Under the pieces are notes generated by a model. That model did not search any database. It was not told the origin of the DNA and saw only the letters and a list, made by a program, of their open reading frames with translations. Shown in pieces: positions 58,239 to 64,000 of a stretch of 64,000 nt of DNA (position 1 is its first letter; every line of letters begins with the position of its first letter). Origin of the DNA: a virus (lineage: Duplodnaviria > Caudoviricetes). The stretch lies in IMG/VR virus record IMGVR_UViG_3300032305_003086, positions 62,599 through 126,598 of that record; one strand, written 5' to 3'. Made by a program: the position numbers and the translations under genes.

Positions 58239-58670
58239 ATGAGCAAATCAATTTGGTTTGGCCGAGAAACCTTTTATCCTGATTTCAAGCCGATTTATGA
58301 AATTGTTAGATTTGAACAAGATGAAATTTTTATTATCCCTCACGTTTGGGATAAGGAGAGGAGTGTTGATGTTCTAATAGAAACTTATGTTTTCCACATC
58401 TGCACAGGCTTAAATAAATCAATTTCACATGTGAGGCAAGGAGGTTATAAACTTATTTTTGGATTTAGAAATGAAACGGGCCATGAATGGAAATTAGCTG
58501 AGTATGAATTCTCTCATGTTGGCAAGGGGGGAGGATGTATCTGTCCCTCAATATACAAATATCGTTTCCAAGAATACCAAGGAGAATTTCCTGAAGAGTC
58601 TGATGTTACCGGATTTCCATCGTCATCTTTATTAGATGATAAGGCTTTTCTTGAAAAATATACGTACTGA
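58239..58670 (+). CDS. paralog family member A (YEIVR...GFPSSSL)
   Basis: AAGGAG RBS; shares conserved termini with the three downstream ORFs. Confidence 0.7.
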   Translation: MSKSIWFGRETFYPDFKPIYEIVRFEQDEIFIIPHVWDKERSVDVLIETYVFHICTGLNKSISHVRQGGYKLIFGFRNETGHEWKLAEYEFSHVGKGGGCICPSIYKYRFQEYQGEFPEESDVTGFPSSSLLDDKAFLEKYTY

Positions 58671-58692
58671 ACAATTAACAAAGGAGACAAAA

Positions 58693-58818
58693 ATGAAAAA
58701 GAGTTGGAGAGTTATCGATTCTAGAAAAAAAAGAATCGAAAGGATCGCTAGAAAAATAAAACGGCTTGAAAACAAGTTGGTTAGTTTGCGTCAAAATAAT
58801 TTTAAACTCGTTTGGTAA
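58693..58818 (+). CDS. small basic protein (41 aa)
   Basis: AAGGAG RBS before ATG 58693. Confidence 0.5.
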   Translation: MKKSWRVIDSRKKRIERIARKIKRLENKLVSLRQNNFKLVW

Positions 58819-58830
58819 AGGAAAACAATC

Positions 58831-59142
58831 ATGAAGATGGTCTATGAAATAGTTCGCATCGAAAAAGATAAAATTTTTATTGTTCCTAATCTTTCGGAAA
58901 AAACAATAATTGAGTCAAGTGCAACTTTGAATAGTTTTTACAAGCATGTTAGTAAAAACTGGGGTCGTAACTTACATGTTATTTTCGGTTTCAGAGAAGG
59001 ATTAAAATACGAATGGAAAGTAGTAAGATCTAAAAAAGCTGGTGCTTTTTGGGGAATTGAGTATTTCAAAGAATACGAAGGAGAAGTTCCTCAACAATTT
59101 GAAATTACTGGTTTCCCATCTTCGTCTTTATTTGATCTTTAA
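58831..59142 (+). CDS. paralog family member B
   Basis: YEIVRIEKDKIFIVP...EITGFPSSSLFDL. Confidence 0.75.
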   Translation: MKMVYEIVRIEKDKIFIVPNLSEKTIIESSATLNSFYKHVSKNWGRNLHVIFGFREGLKYEWKVVRSKKAGAFWGIEYFKEYEGEVPQQFEITGFPSSSLFDL

Positions 59143-59153
59143 GGAAAAAAATC

Positions 59154-59465
59154 ATGAAAACAACTTATGAAATAGTTCGCATCGAAGAAGATAAAATTTT
59201 TATTGTTCCTAATCTTTCGGAAAAAACAATCGAGACAAGAACAGCTGTGGGTCGTTTTTACAAGCATGTTAGTAAAAACTTGGGTTATAACTTATCAATT
59301 ATTTTTGGCTTCAGAAAATTTTCATTTTCTGAAGGATTAGAATACGAATGGAAAGTAATAGGATCTAAGAAATGGGGATTTATTAATTTCGCAAAATACG
59401 AAGGAGAAGTTCCTCAAAAATCTGAAATTACTGGTTTCCCATCTTCATCTTTATTTGATCTTTAA
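59154..59465 (+). CDS. paralog family member C
   Basis: YEIVRIEEDKIFIVP...EITGFPSSSLFDL. Confidence 0.75.
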   Translation: MKTTYEIVRIEEDKIFIVPNLSEKTIETRTAVGRFYKHVSKNLGYNLSIIFGFRKFSFSEGLEYEWKVIGSKKWGFINFAKYEGEVPQKSEITGFPSSSLFDL

Positions 59466-59490
59466 ACTCGTTTGGTAAAGGAAAACAATC

Positions 59491-59973
59491 ATGAAGATGG
59501 TCTATGAAATAGTTCGCATCGAAGAAGATAAAATTTTTATTGTTCCTTGTCCTGTTAATGACTTAGAAAACTTACTTTGGGATGAAATAAGTTTCAAAAA
59601 ATATTTCTGCGGTGGTTTCTATCGATACGGATACTCAATCTACGATAGAGTGAGTTTTCCAAGTTTGGAAAAAATTATTTCACAATTACAAAAAAAACTA
59701 GGAGCGGATGTATCTGAATTTAGTAAAATTCCATCTTGCAAAAATAAAAAAGGAAATAAAAGAGTTATTTTTGGATATAAAGATAGAGACAGATTAGTCT
59801 GGCAGGAGGTTGTTCTTCTTTTTCATTATAGAAACAAACATCCTGGAATTAGTGGCGGCGGTGGTCTTATTCCTTATTGCGAATGCTGCGATTACTTTTT
59901 GGCACCATACAACGAACATATTCCTGAACAAGAAATTACTGGTTTCCCATCTTCATCTTTATTTGATCTTTAA
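59491..59973 (+). CDS. paralog family member D
   Basis: Same termini, longer and highly divergent core. Confidence 0.75.
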   Translation: MKMVYEIVRIEEDKIFIVPCPVNDLENLLWDEISFKKYFCGGFYRYGYSIYDRVSFPSLEKIISQLQKKLGADVSEFSKIPSCKNKKGNKRVIFGYKDRDRLVWQEVVLLFHYRNKHPGISGGGGLIPYCECCDYFLAPYNEHIPEQEITGFPSSSLFDL

Positions 59974-60628: not shown

Positions 60629-61630
60629 ATGAAATTTAATATAAAAGAAGTTAAAAAATATTTTAAGGAACAGGGATGTAAATTATTAGAAGAAAAATAT
60701 ATCAATGCTCATATAAAAATGAAATATATTTGTTCTTGTGGAAATGAATCTAGTATTAATTGGAATAATTTCAAAAGTGGAAAAAGGTGTGGTTGTAAAA
60801 GAAAAGATATACAAAAACTAACTAAAGAAGAAATAAAAAAAGAATTAGAAGAAAAAGGATGTGAATTTATATCTTCTGAATACAATGGATTGTGTCACTT
60901 TATTGAATGTAAGTGTAAATGCGGAAATTTAAGAAAATGCAAGTTGAGTAATTTTAGAAAAAGTTCAAGGTGTAGGAAGTGTCTTCATAAAGATTTGGCT
61001 CTTAATCTAGACTTAGTTAAGAATTATTTTTATGAAAATGGTTGCGAACTACTTGAAAAAGAATATAAAAATGCAAGAAATAAATTAAAATACAAGTGTT
61101 GTTGCGGACAAATTTCTAAGATATGTTTTTATAGTTTTAAAAATGGCAATAGATGTGATAAATGCGGAAATAGAAAAGTTTCTGCGTGGATGAGCAAAAA
61201 TAGACGGGGAGAAAAAAATCCTAGATGGATTAAAGATAGAGAAGTCAAGAGACATAATGACGCTTTTTGTGAAAAGTGCAGGTGCATGGTTAGAAGAACA
61301 TTAAAATTATTTAATAAAAATAAAACAAAGAAAACAGAATGTATTCTTGGTTACAAATTTATAGATTTAAAGAGACACATAGAAGGTCATAAAAATTGGA
61401 ATAAAATAAAAAATGAAAAATGGCATATAGATCACATTTTTCCATTGAAAGCTTTTGTTGAATATGATATACTTGACCCCACGTTGGCAAATTGTTTAGA
61501 AAATCTCCAACCAATGATTGGTAAAGAAAACATATCCAAGAGTTGCAAATATGATAAGTTTTCTTTTGAATATTGGCTTGAATCCAAGGGCATTAGCATA
61601 GAAAGGAGAAAAATACACCGTGAAATCTAA
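60629..61630 (+). CDS. free-standing HNH homing endonuclease with zinc-ribbon repeats
   Basis: Three CxCG...CxxC-type repeats; WHIDHIFPL...ANCLENLQPM...ENISKS HNH domain; overlaps the dnaE start. Confidence 0.8.
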   Translation: MKFNIKEVKKYFKEQGCKLLEEKYINAHIKMKYICSCGNESSINWNNFKSGKRCGCKRKDIQKLTKEEIKKELEEKGCEFISSEYNGLCHFIECKCKCGNLRKCKLSNFRKSSRCRKCLHKDLALNLDLVKNYFYENGCELLEKEYKNARNKLKYKCCCGQISKICFYSFKNGNRCDKCGNRKVSAWMSKNRRGEKNPRWIKDREVKRHNDAFCEKCRCMVRRTLKLFNKNKTKKTECILGYKFIDLKRHIEGHKNWNKIKNEKWHIDHIFPLKAFVEYDILDPTLANCLENLQPMIGKENISKSCKYDKFSFEYWLESKGISIERRKIHREI

Positions 61631-63035
61631 AATTGTTGGTTTTGAACATCTCCACCTCCATTCCGATTTCTCGGTGCTTTAACTTGACGGTTATGGCACC
61701 GCACATGAGTATGCCAAACGAGCCAAAGAAATTAATCAGCAATTTCTTTGTATAAGTGATCACGGCTCTTTAGGAGCCGTACCAAGACAGATTCAGGCTT
61801 GTGAAAAATATGGTGTTAGTCCAATATTTGCCTGTGAACTTTATATTAATCCTCTTCAGCCCACTCTAAACATAGGGCAAAAAGCCACAGATTTTACGGA
61901 GGATATGAGTCCAGAGGAGAGAAAAGATTTTAAAAAATCTTATCATTTATTGGCTATTGCTTATAACCAAAAAGGATATAGTAATTTAGTTAATTTATCT
62001 TCAGCCGCTTGGACCAGAGGTTTTTATTACAGGCCCAGAATAAATTATGACTTATTGCAGAACCACAAAGAAGGCTTAATTTTTACTAGTTGCTGTTATA
62101 ACTCTGAGATTGGCCAGGCCTTTGATCGCGGCGGTGATGAAGAAGGCTTTAAGATGGTGGAAAAATATATTGAATTTTTTGGCAAAGAAAATTTTTATCT
62201 AGAATTTATGCTTTTAGATTTCAATAAGCAAAAGCCTTATAATAAATTTATAATTAGAGCACATGATAAATATGGCTTGCCAATAATATTAAGTAACGAT
62301 TGTCACTACTGCCTTCAAGAAGACAGTAAAATGCAGCGGCTCATGCTAATGGTTCAGACTAAAAAAACTTTGAAAGAAATTGAAGAAAGAAAAGCTGAAA
62401 ATGAAACTGCTGATTTGTTTGAACTTCAAGACACAAACCTTTGGATGAAAAGTGAAGAAGAGCTTAATGCCAAGTGGCTTAGTCACTATTCTGATGATAT
62501 TCCCTGTGAATTATTTGAACAAGCTAAAATAAACACTACCAAGATTGCTCAAAAAGCAAAGGGAGTGGAATTAGATAGATCAATCAAGCTTCCTTACATA
62601 GAAGAAGCTGAAGAAAAATTATTAGAGGCAATAAAAATAGGATTTGATTATAGAAGATTGCCTAAAAATAAAAAATATTTGGGAAGAATTAAAGAAGAGT
62701 ACCAACTAATATGTCAAAAAGGTTTTGCTTCTTATTTTCTAATTCAAAAAATGATGACAGATGAAGCAAGAAGAATATGTCCTGAAATTTTGGGTTACGG
62801 AGATGGCTCAGAAGCTGTGGGGTGCGGTCGTGGCTCTGCTGTCGGATCCTTAATTTGTTATTGTTTAAGAATCACAGACGTAAATCCCATTCAGCATGAC
62901 TTGCTTTTTTCTAGATTTTTGAGTCCTTCTCGGGGCGGCAAGCAAATGAGATTGAGATTTTCTATAGACCCTGTTATAATTACTGAAGATCTAGCTGACG
63001 ATTGTCCTTTTGATGTTCCTCAAGAATACTATTGA
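61620..63035 (+). CDS. dnaE: DNA polymerase III alpha, N-terminal half (PHP domain + start of palm); in-frame TAA at 61680-61682
   Basis: AAAGGAG RBS + GTG 61620; HLHLHSDFSVL*LDG, SDHG, FACELY in frame with the tracked ORF 61905..63035 (HLLAIA, SNDCHY, GRGSAVGSL, FSRFL); ends before the PDID motif. Confidence 0.85.
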
Positions 63036-63060
63036 ACTTAGTCTTTGCGTTTGTTATAAT
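63032..63060 (+). promoter_or_regulatory. sigma70-like promoter with extended -10
   Basis: TTGAAC-17-TATAAT with TG at the extended -10 position. Confidence 0.6.
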
Positions 63061-63080
63061 ATTTAAACTGGAGAAAAAAA

Positions 63081-63359
63081 ATGATACAAATTTTGAAGTT
63101 GGTTAGTGGAGAAGATGTTATAGCTGAGGTTTCATCAATAGATGGATCTCTCAAATTAAAAGATGCTCATAGAATAGTCATGACTCAAGAAGGATTGGGG
63201 CTTATGCCTTTTATGCTTTTTTCTAAAGATAAAGAATTTACAATTTCTGAATCTCATGTTTTAGCAAAAGGAGAGCCAGAAGCAGAAATTAGAAATGCCT
63301 ATAGTTCTCAAACGGGTGGTGTTGTTATTGCAAAGAGCAACATGTTGATTACGGAATGA
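63081..63359 (+). CDS. Sm-like fold protein of T4-like phages
   Basis: ILKLVSGEDVIAEV...GLMPFM...Y. Confidence 0.65.
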   Translation: MIQILKLVSGEDVIAEVSSIDGSLKLKDAHRIVMTQEGLGLMPFMLFSKDKEFTISESHVLAKGEPEAEIRNAYSSQTGGVVIAKSNMLITE

Positions 63360-63362
63360 TTT

Positions 63363-63563
63363 ATGAGTGATGACAATTTTTATAAAGATCAAAATACTTT
63401 ATTTGAAGAATGGCTTAGGCAACCTTTTGGTGACTTGAGTTGTTTATCTGAGTTTATAGACGATTATAGTATTTTTTACATTAAGAAAGCTTTTTTGGAT
63501 GGTTATGAAGCTGGATTTAAATATAAGATGAATTTGAATTGGCAAGAACAAAATCAAAAATGA
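63363..63563 (+). CDS. hypothetical protein
   Basis: ORF in operon. Confidence 0.5.
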   Translation: MSDDNFYKDQNTLFEEWLRQPFGDLSCLSEFIDDYSIFYIKKAFLDGYEAGFKYKMNLNWQEQNQK

Positions 63564-63733
63564 ATTGCTTTAATCTTGAAAAAGTTGATGACTTATACTA
63601 CAAATTTAAATATGGATATTTTATTTTTCAAAAGGAACAGCAGAAATGGGTTTTTATTCCTTTTGAAAAATTTTTTGATGAGGATATGCTAAAAATATCC
63701 TTAGAAAATTTAGTTTTATTAAATAAAAAGTAA
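63560..63733 (+). CDS. hypothetical protein
   Basis: ATGA coupling with the previous gene. Confidence 0.45.
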   Translation: MNCFNLEKVDDLYYKFKYGYFIFQKEQQKWVFIPFEKFFDEDMLKISLENLVLLNKK

Positions 63734-63767
63734 AAAAATCGCCGTTATTGCGGACGGCGAAATTTTT
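63732..63767. terminator. bidirectional terminator candidate between convergent genes
   Basis: A-tract, TCGCCGT/ACGGCGA stem, T-tract. Confidence 0.65.
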
Positions 63768-63781
63768 ACTTTCGAGTTGTA

Positions 63782-64000
63782 TTAGATTCCTCTCATTGCT
63801 CTCATGAGATTTTGATGTGCTGAGTTCATGTGTTTTCTTTCATGATCATGATTATGAGCTTCTTCATCTTCGTAGTCTTCTTCATCTTCTAGGCCTTCTT
63901 CATCTTCGTAGTCTTCTTCATCTTCTAGGCCTTCTTCATCTTCGTAGTCTTCTTCATCTTCGTAGTCTTCTTCATCTTCTAGGCCTTCTTCATCTTCTAG
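63782..64000 (-). CDS. C-terminal part of an acidic repeat protein (partial)
   Basis: Reverse frame reads LEDEEGLEDEEDYEDEED...AHNHDHERKHMNSAHQNLMRAMRGI*. Confidence 0.7.
   Translation of the reverse strand, partial: LEDEEGLEDEEDYEDEEDYEDEEGLEDEEDYEDEEGLEDEEDYEDEEAHNHDHERKHMNSAHQNLMRAMRGI
63859..64000 (-). repeat. 18-nt coding tandem repeat, two alternating variants
   Basis: CTTCTTCATCTTCGTAGT and CTTCTTCATCTTCTAGGC, about 8 units, truncated by the window end. Confidence 0.9.

Follow-up and report, generated by a model that had tools for sequence, protein, structure and literature searches.

A putative homing-endonuclease cassette at the 5' end of a phage dnaE gene, marked by a six-base coding gap that ribosomes may hop

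Introduction

The stretch of DNA analysed here, called the window throughout, comprises 64,000 nucleotides (nt) of a virus of the Caudoviricetes (Duplodnaviria; IMG/VR record IMGVR_UViG_3300032305_003086, positions 62,599 to 126,598), in which a free-standing gene for an HNH-type putative homing endonuclease runs into the 5' end of dnaE, and the frame of this dnaE is interrupted after only 20 codons by a gap of 6 nt that opens with a stop codon. With moderate confidence, we read this arrangement from sequence comparison as a homing-endonuclease cassette, in which the gap would spoil the target of the nuclease in its carrier and would be skipped by the ribosome in a stop-hop of leucine tRNA. 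Nuclease-linked translational bypassing has previously amounted to one system, namely gene 60/MobA of phage T4 together with its homologues in topoisomerase genes. In the window, an apparently independent nuclease family and another essential gene would follow the same logic in a minimal form that consists of six bases, matched codons, and one hairpin.

The interrupted dnaE motif

The nuclease gene (60629..61630, on the plus strand as are all window features described below; 333 amino acids, aa) ends with the TAA at 61628-61630 and overlaps the GTG start codon of dnaE (61620) by 11 nt. The Shine-Dalgarno sequence of dnaE, AAAGGAG at 61602..61608, has been read from the sequence, is kept in an alignment of the relatives that carry the same type of gap (class A, below), and lies inside the coding sequence of the nuclease. 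An earlier note on this DNA had described a nuclease gene ending at 61630 that overlaps the GTG and holds the ribosome-binding site of dnaE, with a 6-nt gap about 50 nt downstream in a conserved motif; each of these points has been confirmed, and the gap has been found to start 50 nt past the nuclease stop codon.

The first segment of dnaE (61620..61679) codes the H-x-H part of the PHP motif and reads VKSKIVGFEHLHLHSDFSVL, ending in the take-off leucine codon CTT (61677-79). The gap itself (61680..61685) is composed of the stop codon TAA (61680-82) and the landing leucine codon CTT (61683-85), and could equally validly be written as CTTTAA, 61677-82. Beyond the stop, the frame continues with LDGYGTAHEYAK... 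and stays open to 63035. The PHP motif around the gap accordingly appears as ...SDFSVL-CTT TAA CTT-DG, and upon removal of the six bases the motif HLHLH(S/T)DFSVLDG is obtained, an exact match to uninterrupted relatives. The body of this N-terminal dnaE piece (61683..63035; phrog_405, phrog_7513) covers the PHP domain and the opening third of the palm of Pol III alpha (Pfam: PHP, 1.6e-33; DNA_pol3_alpha, 5e-24, at profile positions 16-98 of 260). Gene callers place the start of dnaE at the ATG at 61905, and no in-frame ATG, GTG or TTG has been found between the gap and this position, although the 74 codons in between are conserved. The window therefore also serves as a warning for annotation, as polymerase genes of this kind are truncated by gene callers to the next ATG.

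A hot spot of interruptions in related dnaE genes

A scan of viral contigs has yielded 61 dnaE loci, and about 70 wild relatives have been available with later additions. Reading their 5' ends has revealed a short stretch of dnaE as a hot spot of interruptions. Class A, to which the window belongs together with L002, L006, L064, and L065, is defined by 6 nt after SVL with a stop codon between two CTN codons. Its junctions read CTT TAA CTT in the window, CTT TAA CTA in L002, CTC TAA CTT in L006, CTT TGA CTT in L064, and CTT TAG CTC in L065, and these alleles stem from five independent metagenomes, one allele each. In class B (about 14 distinct alleles), 5-8 nt starting with TAG or TGA follow directly after HLH. 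Class C gaps comprise 40-44 nt with a GC-rich hairpin and are located after (S/T)D, at dnaE codons 15-16 (40-41 nt in L033, L036, and L040; further members are L067/68 and L071). Class I alleles (L018-20 and L048) carry a group I intron of 223-227 nt (RF00028, 91-102 bits), which splices inside the codon preceding the L of LDG and hence no more than 4 nt from the class A site. In class F (L051), one base is absent from the T-run of GAT TTT TC. The motif is uninterrupted in about 20 distinct alleles.

Single-base changes of the T-run have been observed beside intact nuclease genes in two relatives, with one T fewer in L051 (3945-4010) and one T more in L066 (3994-4060). In each, DnaE could be made only if tRNA-Phe slipped by -1 or +1 on the U-run, and the indels may represent further immunity marks or homopolymer errors. 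The class C gaps hold an internal GC-rich hairpin of 10-14 base pairs (bp) and are preceded by a second hairpin, of the kind that reaches from the start codon to HLH; their sizes are nearer to that of T4 gene 60, and an intact nuclease gene lies upstream in two class C lineages. Searches for RNA families in the related loci and in the 2.8-kb locus L001 (window 61158-64000) have returned only group I introns and transfer-messenger RNA (tmRNA). Among GenBank phages, the closest DnaE is that of an uncultured 595-kb phage, which shows 54% identity and an uninterrupted, different motif.

Linkage of the nuclease to interrupted dnaE

Regarding the neighbours of these alleles, we hold it to be very probable from the comparison that the nuclease family has a specific link to dnaE genes with an interrupted 5' end. 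Seen from the side of dnaE, the nuclease or a remnant of it lies upstream of 10 of the 25 interrupted alleles versus 0 of the 20 uninterrupted ones (45 distinct DnaE rows; Fisher p = 0.001, a value that ignores the relatedness of the alleles). With the window nuclease as query, tblastn has retrieved full-length matches at L041/42/44/55-57/60 and L050 (class B), at L048 (intron), and at L051 (indel), as well as C-terminal remnants at L002 and L006 (class A) and at L011 and L054 (class B). When the last 75 residues of the nuclease alone serve as query, L018 and, weakly, L008 are added, and none of the 21 uninterrupted upstream regions gives a match. In the class B allele L045 (3860-3912), about 20 degenerate codons of the nuclease C-terminus precede the dnaE start in the absence of a nuclease open reading frame (ORF); as this remnant had been missed by tblastn, remnants are under-counted.

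Comparison at the nucleotide level by blastn has shown that L002 and L006 share the final 185-215 bases of the window nuclease gene and not the rest, with the class A gap retained beside this decayed 3' remnant. In the uninterrupted alleles L003, L012, and L007 and the class B allele L004, the match to the window begins only at the dnaE start or some 20 nt ahead of it. The overlap between nuclease stop and dnaE start is recurrent, with ATGA in L041, L048, L050, and L051 and 11 nt in the window.

Seen from the side of the nuclease, nine lineages with 40-100% identity to that of the window have been looked up, all of which are located directly upstream of this dnaE, and the dnaE motif is interrupted beside eight of them. 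The interruptions include CTT TGA CTT in L064 (74% nuclease identity), CTT TAG CTC in L065 (66%), an extra base in the T-run in L066 (55%), hairpin gaps of 42 nt in L067/68 (56%) and of 44 nt in L071 (49%), and TAGTTAAC after HLH in L072/73 (40%). In the remaining lineage, L069/70 (54%), the motif is uninterrupted and reads HLHVHSEYSVLDG, with many base changes; the gap is therefore not an obligatory state beside the nuclease. In L048, the free-standing nuclease upstream of dnaE is combined with a 227-nt group I intron without an ORF, which is located within 4 nt of the gap site of the window. The earlier note had proposed a possible mobile cassette analogous to T4 mobA/gene 60 and, as a check, whether nuclease and gap co-occur across relatives; the association seen from both sides lends support to that proposal. 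A nuclease beside an otherwise identical uninterrupted motif has not been found, the motif of L069/L070 being heavily substituted.

Turnover of gap and nuclease

The DnaE tree groups the window with L002 (class A), L004 (class B), and the uninterrupted L003 and L012 (support 100/99), and L006 (class A) falls into a sister clade among class B and uninterrupted alleles. Across the tree, gap classes and uninterrupted alleles are interleaved, so that no fewer than 12 switches between an interrupted and an uninterrupted motif are needed, and 17 changes of class. Alleles whose DnaE sequences are 75-92% identical differ in having an intact nuclease, a decayed one or none, with at least eight changes of the nuclease state needed on the tree.

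A mosaic has been observed in the identity profiles. Between the window and L006/L065, the segment from start to gap is 86-88% identical, and the adjoining downstream sequence only 55-64% (58-64% over the next 175 bases); towards the non-A alleles of its own clade, the window shows 63-74% identity from start to gap and 75-92% downstream. This profile fits a cassette that would end at the gap. In the tree of the nucleases, those of class A form one clade, and the topology follows that of the DnaE tree as regards class A and conflicts with it at L041 and L071. Taken together, the comparison points to turnover and some exchange, with no sign of a recent transfer into the window genome, because the distance of the window nuclease from its class A relatives is similar to that of DnaE and the class A parts of the two trees are congruent. 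The 5' boundary of the cassette has been sought by synteny; the genes upstream of the nuclease are common to no related locus, and only the downstream genes of 92 aa and 66 aa are shared.

A hairpin tied to the gap

The start codon region and the sequence before the take-off codon are complementary. The 5' arm CACCGUGAAAUC (61616..61627) covers the dnaE GTG and adjoins the nuclease stop codon, and the 3' arm GAUUUCUCGGUG (61665..61676) starts 12 nt 5' to the take-off codon and ends one base before it. The minimum free energy (MFE) of this hairpin is -16.8 kcal/mol (z = -3.64), and none of 200 shuffled sequences has been found to be equally stable. Folding energies are -16.8 to -18.7 kcal/mol in class A versus -5.5 to -14.2 kcal/mol in uninterrupted alleles, and the pairing in class A needs the synonymous choices TTC TCG GTG, which are found in the alignment only in gap alleles. 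In class B, the start codon region pairs with the HLHLH codons in a stem of 12-14 bp that extends as far as the take-off codon; its MFE of -18 to -25 kcal/mol compares with -3 to -10 kcal/mol in uninterrupted alleles, in which the same residues are coded by other synonymous codons. The stems of class A and class B differ, and their architecture is alike.

Covariation has been evaluated for the 19 class B and C alleles, in which 84% of the cells are paired, versus 37-50% with slid partners. Indeed, 7 of the 14 pairs have changed on both sides, a number matched by 0 of 500 shuffles. The strong hairpin from start to take-off codon is confined to gap alleles, and the presence of G-U pairs points to an action as RNA rather than as DNA.

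Decoding of the gap

Among the five class A alleles, the variable sites in the 20 codons before the stop are distributed over the three codon positions as 3/0/11, and 9 of the 12 variable codons are synonymous. Since the variation is nearly confined to third positions, the segment before the gap is translated in frame and is under purifying selection. The stop codon of the gap is TAA in three of the alleles and TGA or TAG in the others, the take-off codon CTT or CTC, and the landing codon CTT, CTA or CTC. An arrangement of CTN-stop-CTN is not rare by itself, with 11 occurrences on the plus strand, and its significance derives from the position in the motif and the conservation in five independent metagenomes.

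From this pattern, the ribosome probably hops the dnaE gap, and re-pairing of the peptidyl-tRNA offers the simplest common mechanism across the gap classes. Mostly, the triplet that precedes the resume codon in class B is NAY, with which the tRNA-His leaving CAY would form two or three base pairs. A micro-intron has been rejected for a length of 6 nt. The searched literature has contained nothing relevant on dnaE bypassing or on natural stop-hops.

Proposed mechanism and alternative explanations

In the model that we propose, the selfish cassette would consist of the nuclease gene and the first 66 bases of dnaE, with the Shine-Dalgarno sequence, start codon, 20 codons, stop codon, and landing codon. 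On co-infection, the nuclease would recognise or cut the uninterrupted stretch in rival phages, and repair would copy the cassette into the rival; in the carrier, the site would be spoiled by the 6-nt insertion. Relatives would mark the same 18-nt stretch by a group I intron, by gaps of 5-8 nt or 40-44 nt, by single-base indels, or by heavy substitution. During translation, the ribosome would pause with peptidyl-tRNA-Leu on CUU and the stop codon in the A site, the tRNA would detach and re-pair with the CUN codon located 6 nt further on, and decoding would restart at GAC. By this stop-hop the exact motif would be restored, and the junction of the product would read ...DFSVLDGYGTAHEYAK. The hairpin would zip up as the RNA exits the paused ribosome and could help to pull the mRNA forward, as a pull of this kind has been proposed for the 5' stem-loop of gene 60 (bioRxiv 10.1101/2024.12.09.627546).

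Whether the role of the gap is protection from the nuclease we judge to be evenly balanced. We would put no more and no less on the wider proposal that a family of homing-endonuclease cassettes not described before resides at the dnaE 5' end of huge aquatic phages, with interchangeable marks that disarm the target, namely stop-hops of 5-8 nt, hairpin bypasses of 40-44 nt, +1/-1 slips on the U-run, and a group I intron, the translational ones being driven by hairpins, and with CUU-UAA-CUU as a natural, utilised stop-hop. If so, the dozens of natural variants, with gaps of 5, 6, 7, 8, and 40-44 nt, indels of one base, and an intron located almost at the same position, would provide a direct comparative argument that such gaps exist to protect against a nuclease. 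They would also provide a small, testable set of recoding signals for ribosome take-off and landing, with a total of about 90 nt.

Several observations weigh against this model. The independent-pair test of the nuclease-gap association is borderline, with a mean of 4.7 pairs in favour, none opposite, and a median sign-test p of 0.06. A recognisable nuclease is absent at 15 of the 25 interrupted alleles, and in L069/L070 the nuclease is paired with an uninterrupted, heavily substituted motif. The high identity from start to gap could be due to the constraints of hairpin and coding instead of movement, and the similar divergence of nuclease and DnaE from their class A relatives has been mentioned above. 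Stop-hops without stimulatory signals are described as low-level, and the hairpin as a driver is a model only, because its 3' arm would be located inside the ribosome at take-off. Cultured relatives have been sought and none found, all relatives being uncultured.

Some of these points also favour a different, in our view unlikely, explanation, in which the gap is a recoding device for its own sake that throttles or times the synthesis of DnaE, and the nuclease is an unrelated selfish neighbour that favours the conserved 5' end of dnaE, without any protection. The interrupted alleles that lack a detectable nuclease and the nuclease without a gap in L069 would be expected from it, the hairpin tracks the gap rather than the nuclease, and the authors of the MobA study likewise suspect functions beyond immunity (bioRxiv 10.1101/2022.08.31.505936). 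It accounts less well for the finding that nuclease genes and their remnants never stand beside the typical uninterrupted motif, and uninterrupted sister alleles do well without a gap. Moreover, no fewer than five kinds of interruption, among them an intron and indels of one base, are clustered within the same 18 nt beside the nuclease family, and disruption of a target therefore fits better than dosage control.

Readthrough of the stop codon by a suppressor tRNA or by near-cognate decoding would dispense with the hop and would give a DnaE with two extra residues (SVL-x-LDG). The 6-nt gap indeed preserves the frame, and a suppressor tRNA could be encoded elsewhere, as the available sequence amounts to only about 25% of the genome, but we regard this explanation as improbable. 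TAA, TGA, and TAG are all found at the site in relatives, and all three end normal genes in the window, whose ORF terminators are 30 TAA, 22 TGA, and 5 TAG; a reassignment of the code has been rejected for the same reason. No tRNA gene has been found in the window, and the flanking codons are always pairs of CTN leucine codons. In PHP domains, two extra residues would shift the aspartate of LDG away from H-x-H. The sister gaps of 5, 7, and 8 nt are beyond rescue by readthrough; gaps of 5, 7, 8, 40, 41, and 44 nt change the frame, and readthrough therefore cannot serve classes B and C.

A broken gene, be it a pseudogene or an assembly error, or a 20-codon leader peptide followed by a DnaE that starts downstream without H-x-H, would agree with the start chosen by the gene callers and with a possibly dispensable PHP domain, but is very improbable given the same gap in five independent metagenomes (for which an assembly error has been rejected), the intact body of 450 codons, the bias of upstream substitutions to third positions, and the conserved 74 codons after the stop that lack an in-frame start.

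The nuclease family

On sequence and model evidence, we take the product of the upstream ORF for an intact nuclease of probable HNH type that bears zinc-ribbon repeats for DNA binding, with modest evidence from its fold. Three CapR-like zinc-ribbon repeats at the N-terminus are followed by a C-terminal nuclease of the layout DH...N...N. Alignment of 33 members has revealed an invariant block, WH-x-DH-x-x-P...N-x-L-x-N-L-x-P...N-x-x-K, in addition to the three Cys-rich repeats; D268-H269, N288, N292, N301, and K304 are invariant, and the AlphaFold model (predicted local distance difference test score, pLDDT, 88) shows strand-helix secondary structure around these residues. The window nuclease matches the PHROG families annotated as 'HNH endonuclease' (6e-17) and 'endonuclease VII' (9e-5), and has no Pfam match at E up to 10. 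In its relatives, Pfam has detected CapR in 10 members and, both weakly, GmrSD_C in 6 and HNH in 1. Residues 200-325 of the model give weak VIA-align matches to CAD, PacI, and the HNH domains of Cas9/IscB (Z 3-4.4). A Foldseek search of the Protein Data Bank (PDB) with the whole model has produced no match (template modelling score about 0.09), and a profile search of PDB sequences has returned only chance-level matches to zinc ribbons.

The family comprises at least 375 relatives in a search of 5.8 billion proteins, and the 126.6-kb contig has no second copy. A tblastn search of 50,697 phage records has matched HNH genes of Bacillus, Vibrio, and Klebsiella phages, and the 61 phage matches include neither T4-like Mob genes nor T4-like phages.

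Genomic setting and other features of the locus

The window is formed by the last 64 kb of a source contig of 126.6 kb with about 30% GC, and since this contig is judged to be only about 25% complete, the phage genome must be huge. The dnaE ORF stops after about 445 residues, just short of the catalytic PDxD motif. As the piece is followed by a small gene of 92 aa in 13 related loci, the split of dnaE is conserved in the clade. No second match to DNA_pol3_alpha, and hence no remainder of dnaE, has been found in the 126.6-kb contig, and a 165-kb copy in ENA stops at the same place. In L050, the frame past the gap runs to 706 residues, and the tblastn match ends at query residue 391.

Four small paralogous ORFs stand in tandem at 58239-59973, just upstream of the cassette; they have conserved, shared ends (YEIVRxE...ITGFPSSSL) and variable cores, with homologues in none of the related loci. 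Phage tmRNA genes (RF00023, 100-130 bits) have been detected in three related loci of huge phages, L018 (7703-8061), L033 (5878-6221), and L040 (6489-6841), located 0.6-2.4 kb downstream of dnaE. Inteins are inserted deeper in the same dnaE piece of L005, L058, and L059; the one in L005 ends in ...VHN|C before ELYINPLQ, and this allele combines the intein with an 8-nt class B gap.

Comparison with known systems

Short insertions into conserved coding DNA that translational bypassing neutralises have been described for the mitochondrial 'byp' elements of Magnusiomyces (PMC5009743). As far as the available part of that source goes, these GC-rich hairpin inserts resemble the 40-44-nt class of the dnaE relatives; they belong to a different genetic system, and no endonuclease linkage has been found for byp in that part. 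Closer to the class A gap are the synthetic stop-hops of E. coli, in which a stop stands between matched codons and 9 nt specify one amino acid (Weiss et al. 1987, described in PMC5009743). They share with the window the order of leucine codon, stop, and leucine codon and the re-pairing of peptidyl-tRNA 6 nt downstream. Those sites were artificial constructs, whereas the site in the window occurs naturally, is conserved, and comes with a hairpin; no natural stop-hop was known according to a review of 2016 (PMC5009743).

Regarding the role of the nuclease, the free-standing endonuclease F-CphI of cyanophage S-PM2 targets the site of the psbA group I intron, a relation termed 'collaborative homing' (PMC6083498, PMC2790892). 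There as in the window, the nuclease adjoins its target gene and an insertion without an ORF protects, or would protect, the carrier at the target; L048 has the same layout at dnaE. The candidate protecting insertion of the window differs in that it measures six bases and would be handled by the ribosome and not by RNA splicing.

The element of T4 MobA and gene 60 combines an HNH homing endonuclease with a 50-nt bypass (Bonocora et al. 2011, cited in Manning & Atkins, bioRxiv 10.1101/2022.08.31.505936). The bypass insert, and not substitutions, blocks nicking by MobA, and the bypass outlives the loss of the nuclease; its surveyors have termed gene 60 bypassing an isolated phenomenon of puzzling function (bioRxiv 10.1101/2022.08.31.505936). 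The likeness to the window extends over most of the layout. In both, the interrupted piece has its start overlapped out of frame by a free-standing HNH gene upstream, and the cassette brings, or in the window would bring, its own copy of conserved target codons followed by an untranslated insert, placed within the conserved motif of a replication gene that is essential. The stop follows directly after the take-off codon, take-off and landing codons match (CTN-stop-CTN in all five class A alleles), a 5' stem-loop lies upstream of take-off, and the gap outlasts the decay of the nuclease. The differences concern the parts. The host gene is dnaE and not topoisomerase II, the window nuclease has no detectable similarity to Mob proteins, and the gap measures 6 nt and has no internal structure, whereas bypasses of the T4 type span about 50 nt, or 20 nt in one clade, and feature a take-off stem-loop, a mini-Shine-Dalgarno sequence before landing, and a nascent-peptide signal; in the window, there is neither a take-off stem-loop inside the gap nor a long nascent-peptide signal, as only 20 residues have been made by then; the relatives, in turn, bear many alternative marks at the same dnaE site. 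The window cassette would thus work like T4 MobA/gene 60 but would not be a member of that family.

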